A stretch of DNA of 63,795 bases, filler included, from Folioceros fuciformis (taxonomy: Eukaryota): the NCBI GenBank assembly GCA_049999805.1. It is 7 parts of 7 records of this genome, joined end to end, with 100 filler letters (N's around TTAATTAATTAA, not from the genome) between each part and the next. Parts side by side here need not be neighbours in the genome. Positions count along the whole stretch, not along the records: positions 16,002 to 23,665 come from JBNGIO010004445.1; 6 more parts are not named here. One strand, 5' to 3'. How positions within the stretch are numbered: position 1 is the first letter of the stretch; every line of letters begins with the position of its first letter. Positions 11,146 to 50,874 of the stretch are shown here, in pieces. The notes below the pieces were generated by a model that saw only the letters and a list, made by a program, of their open reading frames with translations, was not told the DNA's origin and searched no databases. The position numbers and the translations under genes were made by a program.

Positions 11146-12448
11146 TGTAGGGTTATTAAAGCCCAATGTGCTTAGACTAATGTGTTTAGTCTAAGATTAG
11201 TGTCTAGTTAAGTATCATTTGTTTAGATTAGCTTAAGCTAATCTGGAGGAAGCTTCTTCCGCAGCTTCTTGTGCGCTTCTTGTGAAGCTTCTTAGGGAGC
11301 TCTTCTAGAGGGTATAAATACCCCCTTGAGCTCCCTTGCTATTGAGACTCTATGTGTGAGAGTGTGACCTCTCTTTCTCCTCTCCTCCTTGCCTCCTCCT
11401 CTCATCCCTCCATATGTGAAACTGTCGAGCAAGGATTGCCCAAGCTCTACGGAGGATAAAGCTGAAATGGAGAAGGCTCCATACTCATCAACTGTAGGGA
11501 GTTTGATGTATGCAATGATTGCTACACGTCCTGACATTGCCTTTGCAGTGGGAGTGGTTAGCAGGTTTATGTCAAACCCTGGCAAGAACCATTGGGAGGC
11601 AGTGAAAGGAGTTATGAGGTACTTAAATGGTACGAAAGCTTTGTGCTTATGTTTTGGTAGTGAAGATGCATTTGTTGTGGCATATACGGATACTGATTAT
11701 GCACGAGATATGGACAAAAGGAGGTCCACATCAGGTTATGTCCTCATGTGCACTGGAGGGGCAGTCTCATGGCGATCTCGTTTGCAATCGTGCATAATGC
11801 TATCTACCACAGAGGCCGAGTATGTTGTAGCGACCGATGTGTGCAAGGAAGTCATGTGGCTTGCTCGTTTAGTAAGAGATTTAGGGATCAAGGTTGAGCT
11901 GCTAGTGTTGCATTGTGATAGCCAGAGTGCTATCCAATTGGTGAAGAATCAAGTGTTTCATGCACAGACCAAACATGTGGAAGTGAAGTATCACTTCATT
12001 CGAGAGGTATTGGAAGACAAGAGGGTACAGCTCGTCAAAGTTCACACCAGTCAAAACCCTGCAGATGTTCTTACCAAGGGGCTCTCTACGGAGCAATTCG
12101 CACAAGCTCGGACACTCATGGGCATGAGGTAGACCACTCTTCTATGAAGGTAAATTGGCCTTTAAGTGAGAGATTGTAGGGTTATTAAAGCCCAATGTGC
12201 TTAGACTAATGTGTTTAGTCTAAGATTAGTGTTTAGTTCAGTATCATTTGTTTAGATTAGTTTAAGCTAATCTGTAGGAAGCTTCTTATGCAACTTCCTG
12301 TACGCTTCTTGTGAAGCTTCCTAGGGAGCTCTTTTAGAGGGTATAAATACCCCCTTGAGCTCCCTTGCTATTGAGACTCTGTGTGTGAGAGTGTGACCTC
12401 GCTTTCTCCTCTCCTCTTTCACCAAGCAGCTCCTCTAGCGATCCTTCA
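11146..12448 (+). mobile_element. Internally deleted Ty1/Copia LTR retrotransposon (1.3 kb) with 5-bp TSD
   Basis: TG..CA termini; TSD AATGG at 11141-11145 and 12449-12453; LTR copies 11146-~11388 (truncated) and 12175-12448; PPT AAGTGAGAGAT before 12175; ORF 11389-12132 is the RT C-terminus plus RNase H (RPDIAFAVG, YTDTDYA, STTEAEY, HCDSQSAI, ADVLTK). Confidence 0.95.
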
Positions 12449-14545
12449 AATGGAACAGGAATTTTTGGGGTTACAAGTTGAGCTCCTACCTCACAAAAAC
12501 GGAGTTTTGCTCACGAGTGGCTTTTTTGGGTTTATTTGGACACCTACACTTGTGACAGGGATCCAACCCTACAAACTTATGCCATAGGCTTGTAGGGGTG
12601 GGCAATCCGTAGGTTTGTAGGTGGGTAGGGTTGTTAGTGAGACCCACCATGACTTGATATACCTATGGTATGGTCATGATAGGCCTCTAGGTCTAAGTGT
12701 TGGCAAACCTACAGAACAATCAAGACAGCCTTGGCCAACGGACACGTGCAACGAGTTTGGCCCTATTACTCAAGTGGGTGTTGCAGTTAGCTTACTGTGT
12801 TCAAGACGTTGGTGCAGCTTGGATGTTGAGGTTAGCTTATTGTGTTCAAGATGTTGGTGCAGCTTTGGTGCAGCTCTCCAGAAGGAGGTGTAGGATGCCT
12901 ACTACAATCATAAGTGCCCCCCATCGATCTGAAAACCATTATCGGCAGTACATCTACGAAGGTTACTGACCGAATGTTGCCAATGAAAGTGGTGGAGAGT
13001 TCACCTACTAGTGGGATAAGGGGGGCTTATGAAGAGCATACCTACCATAAAAGTAGGCTACCCTACTAATGGGGTATGGGCTGATCCAGTAACGGACAAG
13101 GACATGGGCGCAAGAGAGCTGATCATTCCCACAAGAACAAAAGGAGACAGGGAATCTTCCGGCCGAGGCAACCCCTCATCTAGGGTCCCTCAGCCCTAAG
13201 CTAGAGAAGCCAAATGGCCCCATGACGAGATCAATGGCCTTGGGAGGCAACATGAATTATTTTTTGAGAAGTGAATGTGGATCTTTTCCAAGATTAGAGC
13301 CAATAGTGACAAGTGTACGTACTACAAGTTCTTTAAGGTACAAACCTCCTTTTATTGGATCACATACTCGACTTTAGATGTGGCCTTAAACTTGCCAAAC
13401 ATGGTGCATGACCTACATGTCGCAAGCTACCATGAGGCAATCCCTACTAATGGAGAAGATGCACTCAAAATTGCTATTGTGGCCAACAATGGCTTGGCTT
13501 TGAAGCAAGTGAACAAGCTATGCACAACATAGTAGCAACTACTTTTGCATGTTCATTTTAATCACAGCTCTTCTCAATTCACATAGTCATGTTGGGGAAG
13601 TAAGCCCCCAAGAGGCTCCAACTCTACCTACTTGTCTTTTACACCAAACCAGTTGAGTGCTATCCACTCATGGCCTTGTTTGAACATGCTCAAGATAGAT
13701 ATACGATCTATGCTAGTTTAAGACCAAAATCCCCAATCAATTCTTGAACCCAACTACACCGAGGACCCCAGATTCGCCGTTTTGGATTTACGCTTTGGAT
13801 ATAGTGACTATTGAACCTGAGATTGCAAAGTTTGGAGCAGATTTGGGAGGTAACATGATTGGGATTGCTACTCACTTCTTGTCTTTTTGGTTTACTATCA
13901 TAGACCCTACATATGGACTGTTTTCTTACACCAAGTACGACAAAAGAAGAGTACTCCCCATGCAATTTGCTTAGTTCATTCATTTGAAGTCCAACAAATA
14001 TGTCTTCAAAGCATACAAGGTTATTGTTTCGCAAGTTTTCCCTCTGCAATATATTTGTTCCATATTTGTGGCTGCTATACATAAGATTTTGCTATTGGTC
14101 CACACCTTTTTGGTGATGGCTTCCAAGAACCAAGGTTGTTGAAAACTATTATCAAGTTTCTGGAGCAAAGCTCTTTCCCCAAGGCTTGAGGGGTCAAGGA
14201 AGACATTTTTGTAATGTTCTCTGCTCTAATGGCTTCCACTCTTCCAAGCCCAAGTTGTGGTATTCCCACCCACGCTAGCTCCATACAAAAAGTTTCTCCC
14301 AATGCGCAAAAACATCATGGTGTTGTGGTCTACATCCTACTAAGGGCTCTACACACTGCAATCACCCTAGTATGGATTCTTTCAAGCATATCGGGTTGGT
14401 GAAGGGCACATACATATATACAACCCTAAACCTATACATAAATATATACATACATACATACATACATATATACCATATATGAGAATGTATGTATGGTATT
14501 TTGTATATTATAATAATAATAGTTATTGTTATATTATATGCAATA

Positions 14546-14838
14546 AATACAAATTTACATGCTAGTAAATGCTTTCCAACTCTGTTCATGAATAAACAGA
14601 TACATAGTGACTCTTTCAGTCCATTGCATTGATGCATGTCACCCTATATGTGTTTTTTTGTGCCTAGCTGTGGCGGCAAATCCCCGGGTGCATATAATAC
14701 AAATTTACATGCTAGTAAATGCTTTCCAACTCTGTTCATGAATAAACAGATACATAGTGACTCTTTCAGTCCATTGCATTGATGCATGTCACCCTATATG
14801 TGTTTTTTTGTGCCTAGCTGTGGAGGCAAATCCCCGGG
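14546..14838. repeat. Tandem duplication, 150-bp period, spanning the flank/LTR junction
   Basis: 14546-14688 is repeated at 14696-14838 with one mismatch and a 7-bp filler TGCATAT. Confidence 0.95.
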
Positions 14839-15901
14839 CACTGATTGCCGACGGGTTCCACCTTTAGTGGCCACACTTATCCCATTGTCGTTGAGACATT
14901 GGGTTTCGTTCCCACGAAGGAGCGATGGGGTTCCTTGCTGCTGTGGATGGAGGGGCGGACTTGATCGACTCGATGATGGATTCGAGGGCTCCCCTCCAGC
15001 TCTGATCAGGCGTAGGACAGGCCTCGCTGTCCGGCGGTCAACTGCACCTCTCTCGGTGCCCAGAAACTCACTCTTGTCACTACAACGACCCTAACCTCTC
15101 AGATCTGCGACTTCCCTCACTCACTTCACTCACTCTTTCACTCCAGCACCAACACCAGCAACTACCAGCAACCAGCAACGACACCACTACCTTCTACACT
15201 TCCCTACTGACTCCTCCTACCCGGCAAGAGTCACTAGACTAACTCCAAACAAAAGGACGAAGGGAACACACTCCCCTCTTGGGTATCTCCTCCCCACAAC
15301 CTTACCAGACGCCATGAGACATGGCCGGCCTACAACACTTGACCAAGCAAGGAACAAGAGTGGACAGGTTGAGAGAAAGACACACCCTTTACAATCAAGA
15401 GCTAGGGGCAAGCCCCTACACCTTGGTCATTACACCTTGTGATCCTACCAGACACTATACAACCGGCAACACGCTGCCCGCGATCCTACCAGACACTGTA
15501 CAGCCGGCAACACGCTGCATGCGATCCTTCCAGACACTGTACAGCCGGCAACACACGGCTTGCGATCCTACCAGACGTTGCACAGCCGGCAACATACTGC
15601 AGGTCCTAAAAACCAAGCAGGGACAGACCACAAGAGCTCATGAAGAGAGGACCTCCAAGAGCTCACAAAGAGATAGACTGACTCCCAAAGTGAATGACTC
15701 CCTCCTCCTACAGGCTCACCTGATCTTATAGGAGCCTCTCTCTCTCTCTCTGACTTCACCTCTCTCTAACTTGAGAAATATTATTTTAATATCCTAGCCG
15801 GCTGTCACCAGCCACTTATTTAGACTTCTAGCACAACCTGCCACCAATGAGATCCTGGCCCTACCACCACAAGGATCTACCACCTCTTAGACTATCCAGA
15901 G
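14819..15901. mobile_element. Large LTR-like repeat, copy 1 (runs off scaffold end)
   Basis: Begins TGTGGAGGCAAA; near-identical to 22135-~23215 with different flanks; internal 41-bp tandem array at 15441-15602. Confidence 0.8.
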
Positions 15902-16001
15902 NNNNNNNNNNNNNNNNNNNNNNNNNNNNNNNNNNNNNNNNNNNNTTAATTAATTAANNNNNNNNNNNNNNNNNNNNNNNNNNNNNNNNNNNNNNNNNNN
16001 N
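15902..16001. other. Artificial scaffold spacer N44-TTAATTAATTAA-N44 (also at 23666-23765, 38085-38184, 46194-46293, 52009-52108, 61302-61401)
   Basis: The same 12-mer, with stops in all six frames, is centred in a 100-nt N run six times. Confidence 0.98.
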
Positions 16002-16867
16002 TCATCTTGGATGTTGAGGACAAGCCAAGGACTCTTTACCTTTACAAGCTTGGAAGACTACGCCCTCTTTGTCCTCCCTCTTTAGGGGCTTTCTTTTGGA
16101 CTCATTCATCCTAAGTGTTCTAGAGCTCACATGTACTCTTGTGTAGGAAAAGGGACTAGCTCTTGGCTTTTCCAATTGCACATGCAACTTTTACAATTGC
16201 TATCTTTTACAATTGCGATGAGGTTTCGCTTGGGCTTGGTCCATCCTTTGGCCCTTTCCCTCTCTACTTGCAATTGCACAGCTACCCTCGATTACTCTAG
16301 GTCCCATTTGGTAGGTTGTTCCAATACAGGGCAATGCATTGCTATACATAATGTTGTTTGCAATGCCATGTTTTAAATGACCATGGAATGTGGGTTTCTT
16401 CTATATAGGGAGCACCTGCATACGAAGTGTTGCTCAAAGTGAGCCCCTTTTATACAAGGGGGGAAGGCGGTAGAGGGTGGTGCAACAGCCAAGGTATATA
16501 AATTAATCTCCCTTGATGGATGAGCACGTTTTCATCTCTAGTGCCCTTGAGACCCACAGAGCAAAGGGTAAGGACTATTCAAGGTTTATAAAGGAGTGTG
16601 TAAAAGTGTACACTAAGGATAAGAGGAGGGTCTCCTCCTATCCTCAGTGTTAGCCTCTTTTCAGCAATACATATCCATTGTTATGCAAAGGGTGTTGGCC
16701 AATGCAATTCTTAGAATAGCGACAAGCATAGATCTATCGACTTTATCGACACTAGTGACAAGTAGGGCTTTGTGCTGTTTGCATCATAACATTATGAGAG
16801 CAGTAAGTAGTTACAGGATTTATATATGAGGGGACTAGTCCCATTTTGCTTTTTGTTTTTAGCCCTC

Positions 16868-17340
16868 GGAGCATGATGGAGTGTCGGAGCATGATGGAGT
16901 GTGGTAGAGTAGGAGAGATAAAGGAGTGTGGTGGTGGTAGGAGCGGTGATGAACTGTGGTGGTATAGAGCATGAGTGGTGTAGACACATGTTGGTATGGA
17001 GCATGAGCGGTTTGATGGAGCATGTTGGTATAGAGCCTAAGTGGTGATGGAGCATGTTGGTATGGAGCATGAGTGGTGTAGACACATGTTGGTATGGAGC
17101 ATGAGCGGTTTCATGGAGCATGTTGGTATGGAGCCTAAGTGGTGATGAAGCATGTTGGTATGGAGCATGAGTGGTGATGGAGAATGAGTGCTGATGGAGC
17201 GTATTGGTATGGAGAATGAGTGCTGNNNNNNNNNNGGAGTGTGTTGGTATGGAGTGTGAGTAGCTTGGTGATAGAGCGTGAACGTGAGACTGAGTGGTGA
17301 TGGAGTATGGGTGTGAGTGGTCTGGTGACGGAGTGTGAGC
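16868..17340. repeat. Degenerate minisatellite of alternating 15-17 bp units (GGAGCATGTTGGTAT / GGAGCATGAGTGGTGAT)
   Basis: Direct reading; more than 20 units, decaying rightwards. Confidence 0.9.
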
Positions 17341-17879
17341 TATTTAGTGTTAGAAGCAGGAGTGGTGGTGGATTGTTGTGTAGGGTGTGGGTGGTGGTGA
17401 GCGATGATGGAGGGTAAGTAGGGTGTGTAAGGCGGTACTAGGGCATAGGTATGTACATCATTTTACTTTGCCATTGTGGAGTGTAAAGGCAATGGTAGGG
17501 CATTGGTGTGTGCGTTGGGTTGGTACAAGTACATGTGGTTGTTATGGAGCAATGTCGGAAGGTGTAGAGTAAGGCCACTAGGTGCGGCGAGTGTGGTGCC
17601 TCCACTATGTTTGGCGCCATCATTAGGAATAGGGTTTGGCACCTATTATTCATTTCTCCAATTACCATGAACATGGAGATTGATCACGGTTGGGTTTAGA
17701 CTTTTCGTAATTTCTATTCTTTTCTTTTCTTTTTTTACTTTTACAGTACTATTATCTTGTGGTTAGGAGTTTTACTTAGCAAGGTAGGAGTGAGCACCTT
17801 TCGGAGTGTGCCAAGGGGCATGGGTCCTACTTGGTCAACAACCACCAAGGACATGCCTAGTCTTGTGTGAGGAAAACTA

Positions 17880-20800
17880 TTAACATCTTAGTGCGGTAGG
17901 GCGTTGGCACCAAATGGGTTTGGGGCACAAGGATTTCAATAGGTCTACATAGTAGGCCCAACTTAGACAAGCTTCTTCTTCTTTGGTGGTCCTTAGGGAT
18001 GCAAGCACAGGTAACCTTTATTCCCTTCTGTGTGTGACGGAGTCTCAAGCATCTAACATTAAGAAAAATGCTAAGGATGCAAGAGGAAAGGAGCACACAA
18101 GTGAAGGCGCAAAAATACTCAACTAACTTAAATAAACACAAAAAGGTCACATATATACATATGGGGTATGTGCCCTAACTAAAGTAGCTTTAAGTATGCT
18201 TAATTAACCCTAAGAGGTTGTTTATCTAACACACCCACTTAACCTCGAACGGGTTAATTATGTTAGAAACACGGCTAAGAAACATGATACAAAAAGCATC
18301 GAATGTGAAAACCCTAAACCATGAGGCAAGCGGCGATCCATGACTCACGAACGTTCTCACCAGCCTCATTCAAAGCTGCACGCGAAAGTTTACACCGGTT
18401 CCGTGTGTTGAATCCGTAGCATCTCCCACATGCGTCGCGTGGAGATGGATTCAATATCTGAGAAGATCGTTCCGATGGCCTTTTTGGTGAGCTGCCTCTT
18501 CTGGCTGGTCCTTTTCTTGATTGTTGTAATACCTTGGTTGCTCCCACCAACTTTCAAAATGGTTAGAAACTGGATCTGTGGGCATACATCTCAGCCCAGG
18601 CTTCAGATGGCGGGAGGAGCAAATGATTCAGATGATGAAGGGAGCTCTATCTCCATGGTCTCAGTGCCCTCAGCGAATTCCAGCAAGAAGTGGCCAACAA
18701 CGAAGGACAAGCAGCTGATTCAAGACCTCTTGGGTTTTGATGACAAGTGTGCGAGACTGGAGAAGGAGTTGGAGGCTACCAAGCTAAGTGCGACTCAACT
18801 CGCCAACACGATCTTAGCCAGACTCAACTCAGGAGGAGGTGATCGCGAGCTAACAGTTGAGGAGTTTGAAGAGGTTCTGGCTGAGCTCTGAAAAGGCGGA
18901 TATGATGTGTGCAAGGATCAAATTGCAATCAGGAAGAAAAAAGAAGGGAAGTGAAGGGTTTGGCGAGGTAGGAAATTTGTTCTCTTTCTCATGACTGTTC
19001 CCACGACTGGATGTAACTGTGAGGCTTGATCCACTAGGACAGATGTAAGGGAACACACTCCCACTAACGATGTGTAGAGCTATAAGCTATTGACATTGTT
19101 GTTAAGCGAACAGGGCTACTGCATCACGATGTAAGGTGGGGAGAAAAATCAATGAGACCTAAACCTTCAACATGTGTCTCATGTTTGTGTCTGGGAAGAG
19201 CTTTCGTCAATATATCCACTGTGTTTGCATCTGTGTGGACATGGGTAGGGCTAACGACACCTCGTGATTTAAAATCCCTAATGTAATGGTGTTGTATTTC
19301 TATGTGTTTGGTTCGAGCATGGAAACGAGGACGCTCAACAAGCTCTAGGGCAGATGCATTGTCACAGAAGAGGATAGTTGGTTTAAGCTGTTTAGCATGA
19401 ACAGAAAGGAGAAAAACTCTTTCCCACTCTACCTTTTTTGTTGATTTTGTCAAGCACTTATATTCTGCTTCTATGCTGGACTCAACTATGCTTGTTTATT
19501 TCTTGCACGACCAGCTTATGGCAGCATATGACAATAAGAAGACATAGGCAGATAGGCTCCTATGGGAATCTGAATATGAGGCCCAGTCGGCGTCTGCGAA
19601 ACCCTGTAAGGTAGGGACTAAACCAGTCCGCTTGTAACACAAGCCAAGGTAAGCAGTACCTCTCAAATATCTGAAAATATGTTTAACCGTTGTCCAATGG
19701 CTGCGTCCAGGGCACTCTAGAAACTGAGAATCAGTGTTGACAGCATATGTGATCTTCGGCCTCGTCCAGATGCTAACAAAAATTAGGCTGCCAACGGCAT
19801 GCCTGTAAGGTACGTCCTTCATGTTTGCCTTGTCAAGTGCTGAAGTCGGGCAATCATTCTTGCTAAGTCGTGTTCCAACAGCAGCAGGATGTGCAGTGGC
19901 CATATGGAATCGCTGTAAAATCAGAAATGTACTTATGTTGATGGATAATGATCATGCCTTGCTCACAAACTCGAAGGACTTGAATTCCTAGCTAGAATTT
20001 TAGTTCTCCAACATCTGTCATTTCGAACTCCTTGCGAAGCATGTCTTGAACTTTTGCTAACAGTGGCTTATCGTTGGAAGCAAAAATGGCGTCATCAACA
20101 TATATGGCCAGCAAGACATAGGCTTTTCCATCATCATAGATGTACACCGAGGGATCTGCGGGACTCTGTTTAAAGCCAAGGGACTTCAGGCAAGTGTCTA
20201 ACTTGGCATTCCAGCGTTCTGCACTTTGCTTAGGTCCATAAATGCACCTAATGAGCTTACAGACCCAGTTTGGATGTGCAGGATCCTCATAGCCTTCTAG
20301 CTATTCCATGTATAGCTCTTCTTCTAGAATGCCATGCAAGAAGGCTTTCTTAACATCCATCTGCTCTAGCTCTAGATCACATTCAGCAGCAAGAGCCAAC
20401 ATGAGGCGAATGGATTGAGAGCGGACTACTGGAGAGAAAGTTTCTTGGAAGTCTAACCCTGGAACTTGTGTATATCCACGGGCACACAAACGTGCCTTGT
20501 ATCTAGCTATCTCCCTGACAGCATTGAGCTTATGTTGGAAGACCCATTTGCAGGTGATGGGTCTGCGACCTGCTGGACAAGGAACAAGCTGCCAGGTACC
20601 ATTCTGAATGAGACTTTTGAATTACTCATCCACCGCGATCTTCCATTTGATTTGTCAAGACCAGTAAACGCTTCGGTAAGTGTGACAGGTTTTGGACGAA
20701 TGGAGGGGACTACAGCTTGGACTAAAGGTAAGCAAACGCCCACTGACCTTCGAAAGTCCATAGACTCATAGGGGGCTTCTTTCCATTCTGATCTAGGGTT

Positions 20801-22134
20801 CCTAATATGTTCTGAATGACGAACTGGTCGTATAGGAACAGGAATAAGATCGGGAGTATCTTCAGAGTCAGGAGAAGAAGCTATGGAACTTTGCTCACTT
20901 GAAGCTTCTAAACCTACATCAGGATTCTGGTTAGGTAACTCAAGATCACCTACAGGCTATTCAGAGATGACTTGTTCTTCTGGATTTGGATCTAAGTCGT
21001 AATCTGAATTTGCATTAGTAGGAAGGAATTGCTGGCTTGCAAGTGCCAAAGGGGATGCTGGAAGAGGAAGGACACCTGGGTCGATAGAACCATCATCACC
21101 ATCTCCATCACCTAGATATTCAACAAAGTCCTCACCATACACCATACAGAAGATCAGTAGGGTGTCCAAGTAAAGTGCCTTTCTCTAAAACTGGTGGATT
21201 TATTATCTCAATGAAAGTAACACTCCTAGCAATTGTAGGCTGCAAAGTCTTAGGATTAATAAGCTTATAAGCTTTGGTTACTTCACTGTAACCGACAAAG
21301 AGTAGGGGAAGAGCCCTATCATCTAACTTTTGCCGTTTCTCTGCAGGCACATATGCAAAGGCTTTGGAGCCAAAGACACAAAGATGTGAAATACTTGGCT
21401 TCCGATCCCAAAAGAATTCATATGGGGTCTTGTTGGGTAGAGCCTTAGTAGTAAGTCGGTTTAAGATATAGGTTGCTGTGACCACAGCTTCTGCCTAGTA
21501 TGGAGAAGAGAGCCCAGACCACAACAGCATAGATCTAGTCATGCCCATCAAGGTTTGGTTCTTTCTCTCCGCTACACCATTCTACTGCTGAGTGTGAGGA
21601 ACAATAAGGTGATGTATTATGCCTCTGTCTTCCAGGAATTGTGTGAATACATTACTGACAAATTCGCCGTCATTGTTAGATCTGAAAACCTTGAGAAGAT
21701 GACCAGTCTGCCTCTGAACCAGAAGCAGCCACTCTTGAAAAAGAGTAAACGTATCACTTTTCTTTTGCATAGGATACGTCCAAGTATATCAACATAAGTC
21801 ATCTATGAAGGTAAGATAATATTCTGCTCCACCCAAGGAAGGGACTTGCAGTCGTCCAAAAATGTCTGAATGTACTAAATCCAGGACTACTGTTGTTTTG
21901 TAAGCAGGTGTGCGAGGAAATGAAGCTTCATGTTGTTTTGTCAAAACGCAAATCTCGCATGTGGGGAGCTCCTTGAAACATGAAGGTAACGGCTCCCTGT
22001 AACAGTCCTGTCTAAAGATGCCAAGAGTTTAGTCTTGTTAGCATGGCCAAGGCGTGCATGCCATAGCCTGGCCATCTGGGTAGTTGTTAGGCTGCCATTA
22101 GTTGTTGAACAGGCTTGCTCTCGACGTGTACAGG
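17880..22134 (-). mobile_element. Decayed Ty1/Copia element (pre-integrase, integrase, RT, RNase H, long 3' region, PPT, 3' LTR)
   Basis: LWHARLGH (~22050); integrase (FRSNNDGEF, TATYILNR, HLCVFGSKA); RT (ARGYTQVPGLDFQETFSPV, QMDVKKAFLHG); RNase H (GFADADWA, FCDNASA, DILTKAL) ending 19124; PPT-like TTAAGTGGGTG at 18242-18232, then TGTTAGA LTR start at 18231. Far end of the LTR not resolved. Confidence 0.92.
18430..19134 (+). pseudogene. Antisense extra ORF in the Copia 3' region: N-terminal TM helix and coiled coil; 153 aa open, ~234 aa if four stops are repaired
   Basis: ORF 18430-18891 has MAFLVSCLFWLVLFLIVVIPWLL and CARLEKELEATKLSATQLANT. The same frame continues through 3 TGA and 1 TAG to TAA at 19132-19134, overlapping the pol stop. 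Confidence 0.6.
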
Positions 22135-23665
22135 TGTGGAGGCAAAACCCCGGGCACTGATTGCCGACGGGTTCCACTTTTAGTGGCCACACTTATCCCA
22201 CTGTCGTTGAGACATTGGGTTTCGTTCCCACAAAGGAGCGATGGGGTTCCTTGCTGCTGTGGATGGAGGGTCGGACTTGATCAACTCGATGATGGATTCG
22301 AGGTCTCCCCTCCAGCTCCGATCAGGCGTAGGACAGGCCTCGCTGTCCGGTGGTCAGCGGCACCTCTCTCGGTGCCCACAAACTCACTCCAGTCACTACA
22401 ACGACTCTAACCTCTCAGATCTGCGACTTCCTTCACTCACTTCACTCACTCTCTCGCTCCAGCACCAACACCAACAACTACCAGCAACCAGCAACGACAC
22501 CACTACCTTCTACACTTCCCTACGGACTCCACCTACCCGGCAAGAGTCACTAGACTAACCTCAAACAAAAGGAAGAAGGGAACACACTCCCCTCTTGGGT
22601 ATCTCCTCCCCACAACCTTACCAGACGCCATGAGACATGGCCGGCCTACAACACTTGACCAAGCAAGGAACAAGAGTGGACAGGTNNNNNNNNNNNNNNN
22701 NNNNNNNNNNNNNNNNNNNNNNNNNNNNNNNNNNNNNNNNNNNNNNNNNNNNNNNNNNNNNNNNNNNNNNNNNNNNNNNNNNNNNTACAACCGGCAATAC
22801 GCTGCCCGCGATCCTACCAGACACTGTACAGCCGGCAACACGCTGCCTGCGATCCTACCAGACACTGTACAGCCGGCAACACACGGCTTGCGATCCTACC
22901 AGATGTTGCACAGCCGGCAACACACTGCAGGTCCTAGACCAAGCAGGGACAGACCACAAGAGCTCATGAAGAAAGGACCTCCAAGAGCTCACAAAGAGAT
23001 AGACTGACTCCCAAAGTGAATGACTCCCTCCTCCTACAGGCTCACCTGATCTTATAGGAGCCTCTCTCTCTCTCTCTCTGACTTCACCTCTCTCTAACTT
23101 GAGAAATATTATTTTAATAGCCTAGCCACTTATTTAGACCTCTAGCACAACCTGCCACCAATGAGCTCCTAGCCCTACCACCACAAGGATCTACCACCTC
23201 TTAGACTATCCAGAGACTTTGGAGGATGTCTGATCTTCAAAGGTTTGCGGACGCCGCCTCTTCGTTGCTGGATGGTCGCCCGCTAAGTCTTCCCCTGCAA
23301 TTGTTCACCCTTGGTGGCTGAGCCAGCCTCTAGGGGAGGAGCATGAGCAATGGGAAAGAGAGAGAAGAGGTGGGAAGGAGTGGGATCAGCAGCCGGAACC
23401 TAGCCTGAAAACGGTAGCTTATTCAGCGGGATTAGCTCCCAGCCGAAATGGTTCCTCGGCCATGGAAGACTGACTCTAGGGTGCTGGGGAAGGCCCTGAA
23501 CTAAGAGGAAAAGAAAGCAGGTGAAACGGAGTTGAAATGGAATTTCTGGAATTAAATCCAGAAAATAGGGAAGAAAATAAAAAAGGGGAAATTAGGAAAA
23601 TAAAAAGAAAAGGAATACGGGGGGTACGTATACGGTATACGTATCAGTACGTATTAAATACGTAT
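22135..23665. mobile_element. Large LTR-like repeat, copy 2, nested in the Copia element
   Basis: Copia coding sequence stops abruptly at 22134; the same TGTGGAGGCAAA terminus and 41-bp array as 14819 follow. Confidence 0.85.
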
Positions 23666-24409
23666 NNNNNNNNNNNNNNNNNNNNNNNNNNNNNNNNNNN
23701 NNNNNNNNNTTAATTAATTAANNNNNNNNNNNNNNNNNNNNNNNNNNNNNNNNNNNNNNNNNNNNCTGCAGCTGCTGCAACGCCAACACCCTCCCTGCAT
23801 CCTCCTGCCCTTGCCCCTGTCCCTGCTCGGATTGCGGCGTCGCCGCAGCCGCTGCCAGCAGCGCCGCCACCTGCTGCTGCGTTTCCTGCGCCATCAATCT
23901 CCCGCCATGCCTTCACGCTCCCCTCTCGCGTCCGACCTTACTTCTTCCAGCCCGACCCGCACAGGCAGGGAAGCCAAGCAAGCATCCACAGTCCAAGAAC
24001 GCTCTGTCTGAGTTTTTATACTTTACGCTTTAAATAAGATAAATCATGCCGTACTTTATTCACTTTAACCCACGGCTTCTCTTCCCTCTGGTACGATAAT
24101 ACAGTCGTGTATGATGACGGCCCGGGGTACTGATTCCATCTAACAGTGTCGGCATCATGACGCCCCTTCTGGACCGAGACCGGGCCAGCTCTCGGCCCTC
24201 ATCTCCTGCACCGCGTTCGAAACGGAAATGGAATTCTCCCGCACCTCTTCCACCTCCGTGGCCTCCGAGGCGCGATTCCTCTCCTTCTTCACGCCCCAGC
24301 CGCCTCCATTGACGCCTGCCTGGGAGCTCCCCTCGCTTGGGGCCTTCCTTGAAGCTTCCGCCTCCCGCCCGGCGGTGGGTGCTGAGATGAGCGGGGAGGA
24401 GGCGGGGCC

Positions 24410-26444
24410 ATGGCGCATCCTGGAGAGCAGGGCTACGACCTCCTGGTCAGGCCTGCTGCCTGGAGCATCCGCTTTACCCTGGCCTGCGCCGTGCTGGCCT
24501 CCTTCAGCTCCTGCATCATCGGATATGGTAACGGGATTTGAATGTTAGAACGATGAATGAATGTGTGGATACAGCTTGTCGGTTAGTAAGTGATGACGGA
24601 CGGGAAGGGATTGGAATGGAATGGAGGAAGAATGGTCTGCTGTCAGGCGGGGGGGTTAGGGTTTCGAACCGGAGTCCTCTGGTTCCCAGTGTCTCAGGTT
24701 TACCACTCATCTCATCCAGAGGAACGTCTCGTGATGCATTGTTGCAGATCTCGGGGTGATGTATGGAGCCGCTGGCTTCATCAGGGAAGATGCAGGGATG
24801 TCCAAGCTCCAGGCGGAGTATCTCTCAGGACTGTGCCTGACGGTGTCGTCTGCCGCGGGAGCAGCAGCCTCTGGATCTCTAGCTGACGGCTTGGGGCGGA
24901 GATGGAGTCTAGCGGTTTCCGCGGCGGTGATCTTCGTCGGGATGGCCGCCATGTTGTTAGCACCGTCTTTTCCGGTTCTTGTGCTGGGGCGGGTGGTGGA
25001 GNNNNNNNNNNNNNNNNNNNNNNNNNNNNNNNNNNNNNNNNNNNNNNNNNNNNNNNNNNNNNNNNNNNNNNNNNNNNNNNNNNNNNNNNNNNNNNNNNNN
25101 NGTGTCGGGGTGGGATTGGGATTGGTGGCAGCTCCTCTGTACATTGCAGAGATCTCGCCCGCCCAGTCCCGGGGGTGGTTGATGTCGTTTCTGGAGGTTT
25201 TGAGCAATGCGGGAGTCCTGCTGGGCTACGTGGCTGCGGTGATGCTGTCTGATCCGAGGTACAGTTTGAACTGGAGGATGGTGCTTGGGGTCGGGGCGGC
25301 TTTGGCGGCCGCGCTTTCCGGGGCCGTGGTGGTGTTGCCGGAGTCTCCTCGGTGGCTGGTGAAGCAGGGGCGGGTGGAGGAGGCGGAGCAGGTGCTGCTT
25401 CGGACGTCCAGAAGCAAGGCCCAGGCAGGGACCAGCTTGGCGGAGATGGTGGCAGCGAGTGGGCGGGCGCCTGTTCGGGTGGAATGGAGCTCCAAGCTTC
25501 CTAGCATCAGTTTGCTGTTGCAGAGGCTCCGGCAGATGCCATCTCCTGATGCGAGGAGGATGCTTCTTGTTGTACTAGGACTGCAGATCTTGCAGCAGTG
25601 GGTGGGCTTGGAGGCTGCTGTCTTCTTCTATCTGCGAGCGTTGTTGAGTGAAGGGGGAATTCTGAGCAGCATGGTGGTGTTCGTATCAACTCTAGGGGTA
25701 GGGTTGTGCAGGATCATCTCCACTGTGGTATCGGGACAATGGCAGGACCGAGTGGGCCGGCGTCCTCTGCTTCTCTTCGGTGGCTGGGGCATGGCCGTGT
25801 GCATGGGAGCGCTGGCTGCTGCTTTCGCTATTCTGGCAGCAGACTCTGGAGCTGCGGAAGTGACCATTCCTGTTGAGCTGCAAGGGAGGAGCGGACCTGG
25901 AGTGGTCGCTGCCCTGGCGCTGGTTGCTGTCTTCGCCTATGTCTCGTTCTTCTCCGTAGGGTTGGGGCCCATTAACTGGACCATCTCGGCGGAAGTCTTC
26001 CCCCTCACGATGCGGGCGCAGGCTATGGGACTGGCTGTGGCTGTTAATAGGCTTGCTGGCGGGTTGGCTAGATCATGCTTCCTTCAGATCTCGAGGTTGG
26101 TCTCGGCGTCTTTGGTTTGCCTCATGTTTGCTTCCGTGTCGGTGGTTGTTCTCGTCTTCGTCTATTGCTGGGTACCCGAAAGTAAAGGGAAGAGTCTGGA
26201 GGAGATCCAAGTATTGCTTCAGCCGAAACAAGGCAAGAAACCTTCTCTCAGGCTGAATTTGGACTTCAAGGGAACGTCAGGCTCAGAGAAGCTGGCTCCT
26301 GCTGCTGCTGAACTGCATGAGTCTGTCTTCTCAAAGCAAAGAGCCTTTCCTGGGATTGCGCAAGGAGCTTTCTTCAAGGATTTCTTCTCCAAGACTAGGT
26401 CCAGCAGGATTAGAGATGCAGACGAGAAGGCGTCACAATCGTGA
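24410..26444 (+). CDS. MFS sugar porter, polyol/monosaccharide transporter (PMT/PLT)-like; 2 exons (24410-24527, 24748-26444; N gap 25002-25101)
   Basis: ACAVLASFSSCIIGY|DLGVM across a GT-AG intron; motifs DGLGRR, APLYIAEISP..RG, PESPRWL, DRVGRRPLLL, FSVGLGPINW..AEVFPL..RA, PESKGKSLEEI. Confidence 0.9.
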
Positions 26445-38084: not shown

Positions 38085-38184
38085 NNNNNNNNNNNNNNNN
38101 NNNNNNNNNNNNNNNNNNNNNNNNNNNNTTAATTAATTAANNNNNNNNNNNNNNNNNNNNNNNNNNNNNNNNNNNNNNNNNNNN

Positions 38185-43595: not shown

Positions 43596-43714
43596 AGTTG
43601 TGTAGTTCCTGTCTGTTTGCAAAAGCTTCATAGTTTTAAGTGTCACTTAGGGCAAACAAGGCCTGGTTGTGGGCGTCTCGAGCATGTTTGTGGAGCTGCG
43701 GAAGGCGGAGGAAG

Positions 43715-44626
43715 ATGGCGTCCAGCAGCGGATTGACGTTCAAGCTGCATCCGCTGGTAATTGTGAACATTTCTGACCACCACACTAGGATCAAAGCACA
43801 AACCGCGTCCAGTGGAGGGAAGCCTGCTCGTGTCTACGGCTGCGTGCTGGGGGTGCAGACAGGGCGGACAGTGGAGATTTACAACAGTTTTGAGCTCAAG
43901 TACGATGCTTCTCGGGAGGCTTTGGACCGACAGTTTCTGGAGACGAAGCAAGAGCAGTACAAAAAGGTTTTTCCGAAGTACGATGTGCTAGGGTGGTATT
44001 CTACAGGAGCAGATGTGCAAGATTCGGATATGCAGATTCACAAGGCTTTGATGGACATCAATGAGAGTCCCATTTATGTTCTGCTCAACCCGACAATCAA
44101 CCACGCGCAAAAGGATTTGCCGATCTCGGTGTATGAGAGTGAGCTGCATGTGATCGATGGAGCTACTTCTTTGATATTTGTGAAGTCGAGTTACACCATC
44201 GAGACTGTCGAGGCGGAGCGGATTTCTGTGGATCATGTTGCGCACATCAAGCCTTCCGATGGAAGCTCGGCTGCCACGCAGTTGGCAGCCCACTTGACAG
44301 GCATGCATAGTGCAATAAAGATGCTGCATAGCAGAATCAAGGTCCTGCATCATCTGCTGGTTTCCATTCAGAAAGGGGAAATTCCTTATGAGCATTCACT
44401 ACTGCGCCAGGTGGCTAGCCTTGTACGAAGATTGCCGGCTATCGATTCTCCCAAGTTTCAGGACGATTTCTTGATGGAGTATAACGACACTCTCTTGATG
44501 ACCTATCTAGCAGCCATCACCAAGTGCTCGAGCACTATCAATGAGCTAGTGGACAAATTCAACACGGCGTATGACAAACAAGGCAGGAGTAGTCTCCGTG
44601 GAGGCCTTCGAGCTACTTTTATCTAG
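43715..44626 (+). CDS. CSN6: COP9 signalosome subunit 6, 303 aa, intronless
   Basis: SSGLTFKLHPLVIVNISDHHTR, GVQTGRTVEIYNSFEL, LGWYSTG, TIETVEAERISVDHVAH, EYNDTLLMTYLA. Confidence 0.97.
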   Translation: MASSSGLTFKLHPLVIVNISDHHTRIKAQTASSGGKPARVYGCVLGVQTGRTVEIYNSFELKYDASREALDRQFLETKQEQYKKVFPKYDVLGWYSTGADVQDSDMQIHKALMDINESPIYVLLNPTINHAQKDLPISVYESELHVIDGATSLIFVKSSYTIETVEAERISVDHVAHIKPSDGSSAATQLAAHLTGMHSAIKMLHSRIKVLHHLLVSIQKGEIPYEHSLLRQVASLVRRLPAIDSPKFQDDFLMEYNDTLLMTYLAAITKCSSTINELVDKFNTAYDKQGRSSLRGGLRATFI

Positions 44627-46175: not shown

Positions 46176-46293
46176 TCCCGTCCTGAGGGCGTTNNNNNNN
46201 NNNNNNNNNNNNNNNNNNNNNNNNNNNNNNNNNNNNNTTAATTAATTAANNNNNNNNNNNNNNNNNNNNNNNNNNNNNNNNNNNNNNNNNNNN

Positions 46294-46508: not shown

Positions 46509-48315
46509 GTTCGTAGATGATCCAATCCAATATGTGATACTAGTTCCTTCGTTTGAACCTTCTCGACGGTCTNNNNNNNNNNNNNNNNNNNNNNNNNNNN
46601 NNNNNNNNNNNNNNNNNNNNNNNNNNNNNNNNNNNNNNNNNNNNNNNNNNNNNNNNNNNNNNNNNNNNNNNNCTCCTGATCAGTGGCAGGAGCCCTCCTA
46701 TCGAAGTGTTGATTTTCGTCAGGATCTAGGCTCTCGTAGTTCCGATGTTGCTGGAGTTGCAGTGGACAAGGCTAATGTAATTACCAATCCAAGATATGAG
46801 CCTTCCACCTATCATGAAGCAGTCACTAGATCAGAAGCTAAACACTGGAAAGAAGCTATCCAATCAGAATATGACTCGCTGGTGCAAAACCATACCTGGG
46901 AATTCCGCCCCCCACTTGAGGGGAGGAAGATTGTTACATCCAAGTGGGTGTTTAAATTGAAATACAAAGTAGACGGGAGCATTTCCAGGTACAAAGCTCG
47001 CCTTGTTGCTCGCGGTTTTTCCCAAGTCCCAGGCCTGGACTATCACAATACCTTTTCAACAGTTGTCAAGTCTTAGTCTCTTCAAGTGTTGTTCTCCATG
47101 TCTGCCTTCTATGGGCTGCACATTCATCAGATTGATGTCAAGACCACCTTTCTGCATGGTAGGTTAGAAGAGGAAATATTCATGCAGCAACCAGAGGGAT
47201 TTGAACTTGTAGGAAAAGAAAGTTGGGTTTGTAAGTTACTCAAGACCATCTATGGTCTGAAGCAGAGTCCATGTGCTTGGTATTAGTGTATACATGAGTT
47301 TCTCCTTGGACTTGACTTTCTTAAGAGCACTGCAGATACCAATGTGTACTTCCTGCAAGAGCAAACTTGCTATGTTATTCTGGCTCTGTATGTGGATGAC
47401 TGTATTTTGCTTGCAACCAACCTAGAGGGAATCACCAGAGTTAAGGCCTTGTTGTCAAGTCGGTTTGATATGGTCGACGTTGGGGAGCTGTCTTATTGCC
47501 TTGGCACTCAACTCCAGTGTGACCCTGCAAACGAGACACTGATCATACATCAAGAGAAGTATATCTGCGACATGCTGTTCAAGTACAAGTTGTTAGATGC
47601 CAAGCTTGCACTTACCCCTTTGGAGACAAGGTGTAAACTTACTTGTTCTCAGTCACCTGAAGCAAATGCTGAGAAAGCTGAGATGGAGCTGGTTCCCTAT
47701 CCTCAAGCTGTCGGCTCTCTTATCTTCTGCTCTAACAACATTAGGCTTGATGTAGCTCTCCTAGTTAGTATGGTTTCTGAGCATTTGAGACGACCTGGAA
47801 GAGCGCATTGGACAACGGTTAAAAGGATACTTTGATATCTCAAGGGAACTAGTGGACATGGAATACATTATACAAGACGAGGCTATGATGAGGAAGAGTT
47901 TACTCTTGTTGGATACTGTGATGCAGACTGGGCAGCAGACCCAGACACTAGGAGGTCTGTCTCTGCTTATGCCTTTTTGCTTGCAGGTGGAGCTGCGACC
48001 TAGTCTTCTAAAAAGCAATCAACAGTGTCACTATCTTCCATTGAGGCGGAGTACTCAGCCCTAACTCAAGCAGCAAAAGAGGCTGTATGGCTATGAAGGC
48101 TACTCACAGATTTAGGTCAGCCACAAAACAATCCAACTGTGATATACTGTGACAATCAGTCAGCCTTAGCCCTAGCACAAAATCCAGTCTTCCATGCAAG
48201 AACCAAACATATTAAGGTACACCATCACTTTGTGAGACATGCAGTGGAAACTAAACATGTAAGGCTAGAGTATATTCCTACAGAGTCAAACGCAGCAAAT
48301 CTTCTTACCAAGTCC
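46509..48315 (+). mobile_element. Decayed Ty1/Copia pol fragment (RT and RNase H)
   Basis: KWVFKLK..YKARLVARGFSQ, QIDVKTTFLHG, YGLKQSP, LYVDD, YCDADWA, YCDNQSA, NLLTKSL; several stops. Confidence 0.95.
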
Positions 48316-50874
48316 TTGCTCACACCAACAAGCTCCGACATCTCCGAGCACAGCTAGTTGCTATTGGAACTATCATGGACGAAGTAGACGTCATTGCACA
48401 GCTCCTCACAAGTCTCCCTCCTAGTTATTAGATTTTGTCTCTGCACACAATGTTCCAATCCGGCAGGCTAAAGCTGTTGGTAAGACATCCACCCTCACCT
48501 TAGACGAGGTGATAGGCGCCCTCTTCCAGGAAGAGCAAAGTAAACTAATGTCAGGGCCTGGATATAAGTCCAAACATGATAGAGTACTAACTGCTTTCCG
48601 TGGTAGACCAGGGCAGAGGGGCAAATCAAAGATAGCACCCCACAATCAAAGCTCACAATATGAAGTAGGGTCCTCTAATTCCAATTCAAATAAGCGTATA
48701 GGTACGTGCAATTGGTGTGGAACACCTGGTCATTGAGCTCGGGATTGTCGAAAGAAGAAAGCTGGCGAGCCTCAAAAGCCTCCCAGGTCTATACCAATAG
48801 CAAGCGTTAGATACAAAACTGGTGATCCGAGTAAACCAGTAGTTAAAATCCTAATAGTTTGCTTATCTACGTCTACTATAGATAAGACATCATGGTACCT
48901 TCATTCGGGTGCCACATCCCACATCTGTAGAGAAGAATCCTTATTCACCTCTTTAGTATATTCCGCTACTGTCGATTGGGTATACCTTGGTAATGAATAG
49001 AAAAATACAAGTTTGTAGATCCAAGGACAAGGATGCTGCTCATTCCACTTGAATGATGGAACAACAATGATCCTTACAGACGTGTTGTTTGTTCCACACA
49101 TGGCCAAAAACCTTCTCTCCCTGAGTACTAGTCTTATGCAGCTCAAGACTTTTGAGCTTACCTCTTAGGATGACTGCTGTTGTTTCTTCAGGAAAGTCTC
49201 CCCAGATACTTGTGTTTTTAAGGCAATCCCATAACATGGTTTGTATCATCTTGATATCGTCTACTTGTCTAGTCACAAGCAGAACAAGGCAGCAAGTGTT
49301 GGTAACCTAACGACTAAGCAGCAATCTATCTTATGGCACACACGCTGGGGCATGTCAATAGGACCACAATGACTGCTATGTCTAAATCATCTATGTTCAG
49401 AGAACCCTACCTACTTGCCTATACGAATTGCCCTTGTGTGAAACATGTGCCCTTGCTAAGCAAAAGGAACAACGGTTTCCCTATGCTCCTACCTATAGTA
49501 TAGGACGTCACAACTTCTTGACCTTGTTCACTATGATATTTCTAGCCGTCTTCAAGTTCCATCACTTGGAGGGGTAGAATATTACTTGACCATCACCAAC
49601 GATTATAATCGATACACCTAGACCTTCCCAATGAAACACAAGAGTGAGACCTTTGCATTGTTTCAGGACTATTTACTCTTGATACAACGCCAAACAAGCC
49701 TCCTTCTCAAGGTTCTCCATTCTGATAACGGATCAGAGTTTGTTAACCATTCCTTTACAAGCTATCTGGCAAAATAGGGAATCATTCATGAGCTGATTGT
49801 TCCTTATACACAGCAACAGAATGGCATTGCTGAACGTAAAAACCAAACACTGATGGGCATGACTAGAGTCATGCTGTTATGGTTAGGCTTACCTTCTCCC
49901 TACTGGGCTGAAGTTGTCGTGACTTCTACATACATATTGAACAGACTCCCTACCAACTCCTTGGTTGCTGTCACACCATTTGAACTCGTTTGGAAATGGA
50001 AACCAAGTCTCCTTCACCTCTGGATTTTTGGATCCAAGGCATATGCTTACATTCCAGCAGAAAAATGCAAAAAGTTACACAATCGCTCACGTTGCCTAAT
50101 ATTCATAGGGTACAGTGATCATGTTAAAGCGTATAAACTTTTTGATCCAACATCAAGACAATTAGTCCTGGCAAGAAGTATTACCTTTGTTGAACCTCTT
50201 GAGCCCGTAGACAGAAAGAGACTTGTTCCTAAATCTGTTCCTAGCGATGATGATGGGGCTAACGAGCCTATTAGACTGTTTTCACTATACCCTAGTGATG
50301 TAGATGGTGTTCTTCCTGCACCAAGAGATTCCACTGAGCAACACTCTTATAATACAGATGATCTAGATGCTGCTCCAGGCATTCAACATGAACTAGTATA
50401 CCTGCTAGATGTTGAGGATAAACTCCTCACTCAAAATCTCCCTCCAGCTCTTGTAATAGATGAGCCGCATGAATTAGATCTAGTTGACCTGGATATGGAG
50501 ATGAATACCAACACTGAGGATACAGACTTGTTTGTCCCTACAGGAATACAACAAATCGCCACTGGTGCTCCTCCCTCGATGGATATAGCCCCATCAATGG
50601 ATGATGCAGGCCCACGTAGATCCTCTCGTTACAGGCCTCCACCTTCAGAATGGAAGGAGCCAAAATACCAGTCAGTCGACTTTCAGCATCATGCAGGGGC
50701 ATTTATATCTCCTCCACCTGTTCCAACAAAACTTGTTAGCCTCACTGAAGCCTTCACTGGGCCAGACAAGGAAAAATGGAAGGCCACAATGGATTATGAG
50801 TGTAATAGCCTAATGAAAAATGAAACTTGGAAATTGGTCCTTAGGCCTGCCAACAGAAAACCCATTACTTGTAA
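48316..50874 (+). mobile_element. Decayed Ty1/Copia gag-protease-integrase-RT start
   Basis: QLVAIG..LLTSLPPSY (gag), CNWCGTPGH*ARDC knuckle, WYLHSGATSHIC protease, HSDNGSEF..QQNGIAERKN integrase, SLMKNETWKLV RT start; related to the 19124-22134 element. Confidence 0.93.

Follow-up and report, generated by a model that had tools for sequence, protein, structure and literature searches.

The window analysed here, which is the whole stretch of 63,795 nucleotides of Folioceros fuciformis DNA (63.8 kb, filler included), contains an ordinary, dead copy of a Ty1/copia element in a short draft scaffold (16002-23665), and past the pol stop of this copy lie two PPT-like motifs, each followed by a putative LTR start, which are non-random twins of each other and bracket an open frame on the strand opposite to pol. 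The explanation that we tentatively prefer is that the Copia family bears some 0.82-0.89 kb of extra and probably non-coding DNA beyond pol, that a recombination or duplication at the PPT junction, to which the bracket formed by the two motifs points, possibly left an older LTR start behind, and that the functional LTR, to which the TATA and poly(A) signals belong, would start at 18231. The 153-codon frame of the plus strand would then be an incidental open frame in the tail and not an accessory gene. The features under discussion are collected in table 1.

Table 1. Position of the Copia copy, its 3′ features and the neighbouring repeat, counted along the window
Feature	Position	Strand	Remarks
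Candidate LTR, or 3′ part of a longer LTR	17970..18231	-	Sense TATATA 18157-18152, AATAAA 18022-18017
Site B, PPT-like motif GGTTAAGTGGGTG then TGTTAGA	18225..18246	-	LTR start according to the earlier note
TTCTAACA	18261..18268	-	Final 7 bases reverse-complementary to TGTTAGA; LTR 3′ end-like; 30 nt ahead of site B
Interval from pol stop to TGTTAGA	18232..19123		892 nt
Orphan ORF, convergent with pol	18430..18891	+	153 aa from ATG, 159 codons stop to stop
Hydrophobic helix, residues 16-38	18475..18543	+	23 residues
Site A, PPT-like motif CGTTAGTGGGAG then TGTGTT	19052..19070	-	57 nt past pol stop
Ty1/copia pol remnant	19124..22134	-	Integrase, RT, RNase H-like tail order; in-frame stops, frame changes; 5′ side cut off
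Super-abundant repeat	22135..23215		Takes the place of the Copia 5′ part; outside the element

An earlier note, made from the sequence alone, had recognized a Copia element, and the Pfam results bear this out on the minus strand. The Copia-type reverse transcriptase domain RVT_2 is found over its curated cutoff in two pieces (E 2.1e-33 at 20301-20621 and E 1.5e-20 at 19992-20300), SH3_retrovirus likewise exceeds the cutoff (E 5e-24), and rve (E 5e-4) and gag_pre-integrs (E 7e-5) remain below theirs. The order of the domains is INT, RT, RH, with gag_pre-integrs, rve and SH3_retrovirus at 22192-21132, upstream of RVT_2 at 20621-19992 on the minus strand. Decay is evident from the pieces of the pol ORF, which meet at in-frame stops (19496, 20301, 20957 and 21789) with at least four frame changes; the last of them terminates at the stop 19124-19126, and the pieces of the pol tail share 38-45% identity with two other Copia fragments within the window. 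Neither gag nor protease was found upstream of integrase by ORF scan or Pfam, and since the element gives way to an unrelated repeat at 22134/22135, this indicates a truncated copy and not a different kind of element. The repeat shares 94-95% identity with 14816-15901, where the previous scaffold ends, and has a summed depth of ~1e5 vs ~10 for single-copy contigs, with 20 loose ends at 22135 in run X1 and 19 in run X2 leading into unlike flanks; all sequence upstream of integrase has been replaced by this high-copy repeat. The 63.8-kb window contains no direct repeat of 17240-19057, so that only the 3′ junction motifs are present, and without a second LTR in the window the LTR extent, TSD and PBS are unreadable from this copy. 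Rfam gave no matches on 12000-24000. The Copia identity and decay, together with the truncation by so abundant a repeat with diverse flanks, favour the preferred explanation.

The spacing of ~890 bp that had been given between the pol stop (19124) and the PPT followed by TGTTAGA at 18231 proves accurate (table 1). None of the frames of this interval matches Pfam, the remainder of the window contains nothing similar to it, and tandem repeats are absent from 17743-19300. At its far end AAGTGGGTG precedes TGTTAGA (18231-18225, minus strand). The alternative PPT-like site to which the earlier note had pointed is also present, namely site A, which lies at the usual distance from pol, given that a third Copia in the window has a PPT-like motif and TGTAGGG ~43 nt past its own pol stop. 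Sites A and B are non-random twins: the pattern AGTGGG(N0-2)TGTGTT, picked after the sites had been seen, is present at just two places of the 63.8 kb, each of them on the minus strand (19052-19065 and 18228-18239), vs 0.02 expected from shuffles. Local alignment of the tails preceding the two sites yielded nothing significant past the PPT motif itself (p 0.07).

Because site A is a twin of site B, an LTR, present or former, may enclose the ORF. An alternative that we consider possible but unlikely is therefore that the 3′ LTR begins at site A (19057/19055), where both the twin motif and the distance from pol (57 nt vs 43 nt in the other Copia) would place it, and that the ORF is incidental within it. 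This LTR could be ~0.8 kb long and end at TTCTAACA (18261), in which case the next 30 nt and TGTTAGA would belong, as tail and LTR, to a related Copia that was the insertion target; or else it could be a single long LTR, with a U3 that would begin at site A, take in the ORF region and reach as far as the TATA (18157) and the poly(A) signal (18022). Such signals usually lie near the 3′ part of an LTR, as they would in the single long form, whereas the shorter form is at odds with the lack, from 19057 to 18262, of any TATAAA, TATATA or AATAAA in sense orientation. The presence of TATATA and AATAAA in sense orientation after site B, and of neither after site A, argues together with the twin motifs for the preferred explanation. 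The LTR-end-like inverse of TGTTAGA, TTCTAACA, would provide the shorter form with a fitting end, but its four occurrences in the window vs 2.2 expected, which include a second copy at 17348-17355 (minus strand), are no rarer than chance and not significant alone; the putative LTR segments flanking 18231-18262 show no mutual similarity.

DNA contigs from public runs bear on the same question. Runs X1 and X2 yield diverged contigs that match 18342-18879 and that lead across 18766-19328 into pol, and since these diverged copies likewise join the segment to pol, the segment belongs to the Copia family. Absence of the segment from other copies, which had been named in advance as evidence against an antisense gene, is consequently not what is found. 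The retention of the tail in several diverged copies speaks to some extent for such a gene and against the preferred explanation, and contigs running from the segment to pol would be equally compatible with an internal tail and with a 3′ LTR. However, all three distinct contigs of run X1 that enter site A from the interval side, among the matches listed and with long pieces favoured, continue into pol, and among the same matches no contig crossing site A has a 5′-LTR or solo-LTR flank. One diverged contig has a match that breaks exactly at 18231 and picks up in pol at 19308. Summed contig depth amounts to 58-85 on 17970..18231 and drops to 9-20 further down; across the interval 18232..19123 it is 26-57, which makes it uneven for a single LTR starting at site A. 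These contigs entering pol, the joint at 18231 and the rise in depth below it all favour an LTR that starts at 18231, as in the preferred explanation. A further contig, identical to the window over 17253-18062, terminates at 18062. The contigs of run X3 were not counted as independent copies, since their differences are skewed (288 C>T and 274 G>A vs 52-69 for other transitions) in a way that looks like chemical conversion and not like divergence. Run X4, guessed to be RNA, has no cover on 17240-21971 and is uninformative on expression.

The open frame of the plus strand had been interpreted as an antisense gene for a membrane protein. The convergent ORF does have the hydrophobic helix and the acidic, Ser-rich stretch that had been described: the helix has a Kyte-Doolittle maximum of 3.04 over 19 residues, attained by only 2 of the 122 ORFs of at least 100 codons in the window, and is flanked by basic residues on either side, and residues 61-92 include 4 D/E and 10 S/T. 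An AlphaFold2 model computed from the single sequence (mean pLDDT 60) predicts helices at residues 10-37, 91-117, 121-134 and 143-152, hence also C-terminal ones, with disorder between; the block pLDDT of the first helix is 79-91. A family-specific accessory gene with these features, transcribed in or near the 3′ LTR, would encode a small single-pass membrane protein for the life cycle of the element or its control, anchored at its N-terminus and continuing through an acidic Ser-rich linker into a helical domain, possibly a coiled coil, at the C-terminus. The hydrophobic segment with its basic flanks and the predicted helix-disorder-helix layout are consistent with this interpretation, which nevertheless appears distinctly unlikely when the frame itself is considered.

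In terms of length, the ORF is mildly unusual. A stop-free run of at least 159 codons arises in 3.5%, and an ATG ORF of at least 153 codons in 1.0%, of 3000 dinucleotide shuffles of the 892-nt gap, values (p 0.01-0.035) which precede correction for the many places where a reader can look; the rarity of such a run counts for a gene and against the preferred explanation, the modest p in the opposite sense. Similarly, the purine-rich first and GC-rich third codon positions would suit a gene, as would a codon score (0.05) inside the range of real pol pieces (0.016-0.144), which, like a z-score of 3.2 under a mononucleotide null and the hydrophobic strength, counts against the preferred explanation. 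Yet the z-score falls to 1.39 (p 0.09) when the null is taken from the longest ORFs of dinucleotide shuffles (-0.007 +/- 0.041), and codon usage was dropped as coding evidence; antisense junk ORFs within the same Copia score 0.03-0.08. A protein language model gives the ORF a recognition score of 1928, which is low considering that 2300 is reached by 91 of 100 known-family proteins. Of the differences listed inside the ORF, the sole well-supported one is a synonymous change of GAT to GAC (18741 T>C), which would suit a gene. As to transcription, the only TATA-like site of the plus strand is at 18152 and is separated from the ORF start by eight ATGs, and neither AATAAA nor ATTAAA is present on this strand from the ORF stop to 19400, all of which weighs against a gene.

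The proposed extension of the frame to 19134 does require, as had been stated, that four internal stops be ignored, but the resulting frame of 234 residues is not borne out as meaningful: the 81 codons after 18891 contain 5 stops including the last, vs ~4.4 expected from base composition, and stops at chance density leave the longer frame no better than chance. The 66 codons ahead of the ATG contain 2 stops in the same frame. Given a decayed copy, codon usage like that of junk ORFs and no homologue, the antisense gene as originally interpreted is not supported; none of the analyses done establishes the 153-codon frame as a gene, and we hold it rather improbable that the orphan ORF is a real one. 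Chance-density stops flanking the ORF, its modest length p, the dinucleotide codon null, the low language-model score and the blank homology searches all favour the preferred explanation, with the ORF as an incidental frame.

How much weight can these searches bear? Neither Pfam nor 5.8 billion clustered proteins nor 1.84 billion representatives yielded a relative of the ORF, and an exhaustive phmmer search of the representatives gave 0 matches; a word-indexed protein search scored none of 37 candidates (lengths 84-268 only), the ESM Atlas returned no usable match, and a scan of viral contigs confirmed 0 of 6 pattern matches. Two candidates were rejected. A metagenome locus (L001), the one of 140 pattern matches to pass, has 21 residues around the seeded word in a contig of 28% GC without Copia similarity, and was attributed to chance; TrcR (0.043), the sole Pfam match over all interval frames and a read-through with X at stops, has no passing stretch. 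A control search with pol found 7 matches of 42-49% identity, none above 49%, so that the Copia family and its host are absent from the libraries, and the blank ORF searches weigh little, also as an argument against an antisense gene. They bear in addition on another alternative, according to which template switching at the PPT would have brought in, as the tail, a piece of a host gene or of a different mobile element in reverse orientation, and the ORF would be a coding relic with no role in the Copia. LTR retrotransposons are documented to capture genes (PMC7264820, in the available text), recombination in reverse transcription could produce a duplicated PPT-junction bracket, and the composition of the frame is coding-like, but such an origin is highly improbable, considering that no similar protein is present in the 1.84 billion representatives or Pfam and that no second copy of the tail sequence occurs elsewhere in the window.

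Among the systems to which the orphan ORF may be compared, Grande, RIRE2 and Retand are Ty3/gypsy elements, whereas SIRE (Sirevirus) is a Copia lineage, the env-like ORF of which has predicted transmembrane and coiled-coil features. The orphan ORF resembles this env-like ORF in lying past pol, but it is on the strand opposite to pol and much shorter, and no sequence similarity between the two was found. Antisense ORFs between pol and the 3′ LTR (aORF-3R) have been described in maize Grande (gene23), rice RIRE2, Silene Retand, Phaseolus PvRetro13 and Botrytis Boty, where they are present in all or most family copies, some with antisense transcripts (Vicient and Casacuberta 2020, PMC7264820, in the available text), and this accepted class in other LTR retrotransposons lends plausibility to an antisense gene. 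The likeness in position and orientation applies if the LTR starts at 18231 and fails if it starts at site A, 19057; the products of aORF-3R are likewise without clear database relatives and of unknown function in that account (PMC7264820). In contrast to these examples, the present ORF is short, belongs to a Copia and lies in a segment that several diverged DNA contigs (X1, X2) link to pol.

Within Ty1/copia, the survey of Neumann et al. (2019, PMC6317226), as far as its main text is concerned, reports extra ORFs of at least 250 codons in 582 elements falling in 45 unrelated groups, and scores four classes of position and orientation, including 3′ reverse; SIRE is the only Copia lineage with a characteristic eORF in the survey, in sense orientation. 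The present case is similar in having an extra frame 3′ of the polyprotein of a Copia, and departs from the definition of an eORF (at least 250 codons, outside tandem repeats) on length alone, with its 159 codons stop to stop; its 153 codons from the ATG, far under the cut of this plant survey, weigh against a gene (PMC6317226, same text). Antisense promoter activity, which expression of the orphan ORF would need, is known in the Copia-type elements AtRE1 of Arabidopsis and Mdoryco1-1 of apple, though these are cases of promoters and not of antisense proteins (cited in PMC7264820, in the available text). No specific case of an antisense ORF in a Copia was found in the literature searched, while the supplementary tables of PMC6317226 may list 3′ reverse ones. 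That we are dealing with a Copia family endowed with a short, relative-free antisense gene for a single-pass membrane protein with a coiled-coil tail, gained with the PPT-junction duplication, is a proposition to which we attach little credence.

As it stands, the finding amounts to the routine annotation of yet another dead Copia, here with a long 3′ tail, in which the twin PPT-junction motifs offer a modest structural clue to how LTR elements acquire extra 3′ sequence. If the frame were conserved and expressed, it would provide a Copia example of the poorly understood antisense extra ORFs and a small protein tractable for functional work. Were the antisense gene real, the class of antisense accessory ORFs would extend from Tat-type Gypsy elements to Copia, with its first membrane-anchored member.

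On the minus strand, the Copia copy carries GGTTAAGTGGGTG followed by TGTTAGA at 18231, 892 nt from the pol stop (19124-19126), in accord with the pol end at 19124 and the ~890-bp gap before a PPT/TGTTAGA LTR start described in the earlier note. The convergent ORF, hydrophobic helix and acidic Ser-rich linker that it placed in this gap were likewise recovered: the ORF lies on the plus strand (table), its residues 16-38 are strongly hydrophobic, with a 19-residue Kyte-Doolittle maximum of 3.04, and Ser/Thr and acidic residues abound at 61-92. That maximum is matched by 2 of the 122 ORFs of at least 100 codons in the window, 20% of which reach 1.6. The single-sequence AlphaFold2 model of the product (mean pLDDT 60, pTM 0.25) shows residues 10-37 as a confident helix, ~52-90 as disordered, and 91-117, 121-134 and 143-152 as further helices. 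The proposed extension to 19134 by repair of stop codons did not hold up, as the repaired frame is at chance level: its 81 added codons contain 5 stops against ~4.4 expected from base composition, and the 66 codons upstream of the ORF in the same frame contain 2.

Coordinates of the features discussed (positions along the window)
Feature	Position	Strand	Description
ORF	18430 to stop 18889-18891	plus	153 aa; 159 codons stop to stop
Copia pol ORF pieces	22192 down to 19124	minus	Pfam: gag_pre-integrs and rve (both below cutoff), SH3_retrovirus, RVT_2 twice
Comparator Copia fragment	11368-12132	plus	pol end, 254-codon open frame
Repeat copies	22135-23215; 14816-15901		94-95% identical to each other
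Linkers N44-TTAATTAATTAA-N44	15902-16001; 23666-23765; 38085-38184; 46194-46293; 52009-52108; 61302-61401		stops in all six frames
Third Copia family	46870-48357; 48425-50887	plus	first part: RT and pol tail, stop near 48357
Sugar transporter gene	24735-26444	plus	Pfam Sugar_tr, E 1.5e-66; GC-rich, single frame broken only by N100 gap
JAB/MPN + MitMem_reg gene	43640-44623	plus	E 1e-22 and 6e-34; GC-rich, single uninterrupted frame

The domains along the pol pieces follow the Ty1/copia order. The final two pieces (19951-19124) gave no Pfam match and share 38-45% identity with the corresponding stretch of two further Copia fragments in the window, and the last ends in what we take to be a typical Copia pol C-terminus. 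Because abutting pieces are separated by in-frame stops (19496, 20301, 20957 and 21789) and the frame shifts at least four times, this copy is dead. It is also truncated; an ORF and Pfam survey of the copy found neither gag nor protease upstream. At 22135 it meets the sharp left edge of a repeat that also forms the end of the previous scaffold and whose summed depth over the contigs of public DNA runs is around 1e5, versus ~10 for single-copy contigs; 20 and 19 loose contig ends with disagreeing flanks fall at this edge in two of these runs, X1 and X2. Since the repeat replaces the sequence from 22135, the 5' part of the element, any 5' LTR included, is missing here. Within the repeat are 41-nt tandem units along with a CT microsatellite; it is present also in a run guessed to be RNA, and had no match in Rfam.

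The window consists of short scaffolds chained by linkers, chromosomal continuity being absent; the scaffold with the Copia copy and ORF measures 7.66 kb (16002-23665). Adjacency across linkers is artificial, and plain N100 and N10 gaps occur within scaffolds. In the third Copia family, ~70 nt past the stop of the first part, there follow a gag-like zinc-knuckle ORF, a protease-like motif, integrase (SH3_retrovirus) and RT again, as if the arrangement were permuted or tandem, or the assembly had collapsed here. The two host genes are noteworthy as intron-free eukaryotic genes within a TE-rich draft.

Is the segment peculiar to this copy? Of the sampled words of 18232-19134, 80-83% are present in two DNA runs of one sample. 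Among contigs aligned to 17240-22680 at no less than 80% likeness, diverged ones from X1 and X2 span the ORF (18342-18879; 90 differences and one gap in 537 nt), and at least three distinct contigs with 85-91% identity run from its 3' part into pol (18766-19157, 18772-19192 and 18860-19328), crossing a second PPT-like motif that is followed by TGTGTT (site A, 19070-19052). Hence the segment is a feature of the family, adjoining pol in several copies, and the absence from other copies that the earlier note had named against its own reading is not what we find. Among the differences listed, the only well-supported one within the ORF in X1/X2 is the synonymous 18741 T>C. A further run of the same sample, X3, has 288 C>T and 274 G>A across 17240-22680 versus 52-69 for other transitions, a skew consistent with bisulfite-type conversion, by which its contigs would mimic diverged copies; X3 was left out as a source of independent copies.

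The rival LTR start at site A is well founded, and the ORF may thus lie inside an LTR. Site A is 57 nt past the pol stop, comparable with the canonical short spacer of the Copia fragment used as in-window comparator for pol-to-LTR distance, which has a PPT-like motif and TGTAGGG near 12161-12180, ~43 nt past its stop, and TATAAATA near 12343. The pattern AGTGGG(N0-2)TGTGTT, defined post hoc, has just two occurrences across the window, at site A and at the 18231 junction (site B), both on the minus strand, against 0.02 expected; TTCTAACA, the inverse of TGTTAGA and alone no rarer than chance, has its end 30 nt ahead of site B, at 18261. However, a start at 18231 is favoured by summed contig depth, which climbs to 58-85 at 17968-18331 after 26-57 in the interval, by one diverged contig whose match ends exactly at 18231 and resumes in pol at 19308 (the alignment being silent on the contig sequence between), and by TATATA (18157) and AATAAA (18022) in sense orientation past site B, signals of these kinds being absent from 19057 to 18262. 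The ~0.82-kb segment is therefore bracketed by two copies of a PPT/LTR-start junction. This layout fits three readings. Probably it is an internal tail gained by PPT recombination, which left a vestigial junction. The alternatives, an LTR of 0.8 kb with the tail and LTR of a related Copia behind it, or one long LTR with the segment in U3, are together rather unlikely; under either the ORF would be incidental, and we regard such a placement within an LTR as doubtful. About 1 kb past TGTTAGA, a tandem array (16941-17225; 32-, 66- and 98-nt units with 76-93% matches) adjoins an N10 gap and could be part of the flank or of a long LTR.

When the 892-nt gap was shuffled 3000 times with dinucleotides preserved, 3.5% of the shuffles contained, in some frame, a stop-free run of 159 codons or longer, and 1.0% an ATG ORF of at least 153 codons. 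Under a codon-usage log-likelihood with 1597 Copia codons of the window as training set, the ORF scores 0.05 per codon and real pol pieces 0.016-0.144 (leave-one-out); the z-score of the ORF is 3.2 against an independent-base null, and 1.39 (p 0.09) when the longest ORFs from dinucleotide shuffles serve as the null. Given the latter value and the scores of 0.03-0.08 for clearly spurious antisense ORFs inside Copia (20457-20768, 21465-21794 and 11295-11696), composition fails to separate the ORF from junk. The sole plus-strand TATA-like hexamer nearby (18152) is followed by 8 ATGs before the ORF start, and no AATAAA/ATTAAA occurs on that strand from the ORF stop up to 19400, signals that we grade as weak evidence. 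The ESM Atlas recognition value is 1928, versus 2300 reached by 91 of 100 known-family proteins, a measure which by the tool's own caveat gives no verdict on gene reality.

Pfam matched neither the ORF, the other interval frames, nor the 301-codon read-through with X at stops. No relative emerged when 5.8 billion clusters were searched by indexed words (none of 37 candidates scored), from exhaustive phmmer against 1.84 billion representatives (0 hits), or from a scan of viral contigs, and ESM Atlas offered no usable neighbour. One metagenome match was rejected, as it spans 21 residues surrounding the seeded word, and its contig has 28% GC and no Copia. These blanks say little about family copies, since a control pol piece of 151 aa from the same copy retrieves only 7 proteins at 42-49% identity, and organism and Copia family are therefore absent from the library. 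That the ORF is a captured coding fragment seems very improbable.

Extra ORFs that lie antisense between pol and the 3' LTR form an accepted, unexplained class that includes Grande, RIRE2, Retand, PvRetro13 and Boty, with products lacking clear database relatives, one of them nuclear, and with antisense transcripts demonstrated for some (PMC7264820). Neumann et al. (PMC6317226), in a survey across plants, scored four position/orientation classes and report 45 unrelated groups of extra ORFs of at least 250 codons, from 582 Ty1/copia elements, SIRE alone having a characteristic one, in sense orientation; our ORF falls below this length, while being free of tandem repeats as that survey demands. 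Literature text searches returned no specific antisense ORF in a Copia; the survey's per-element tables may list some.

None of the tests supports the gene reading. A real antisense accessory gene appears unlikely, considering the chance-level repaired frame, the decayed state of the copy and the possible placement inside an LTR. The anatomy described in the earlier note is real and its segment belongs to the Copia family, in which the ORF may, with a likelihood that we put slightly short of even, be an incidental frame in a non-coding internal tail.
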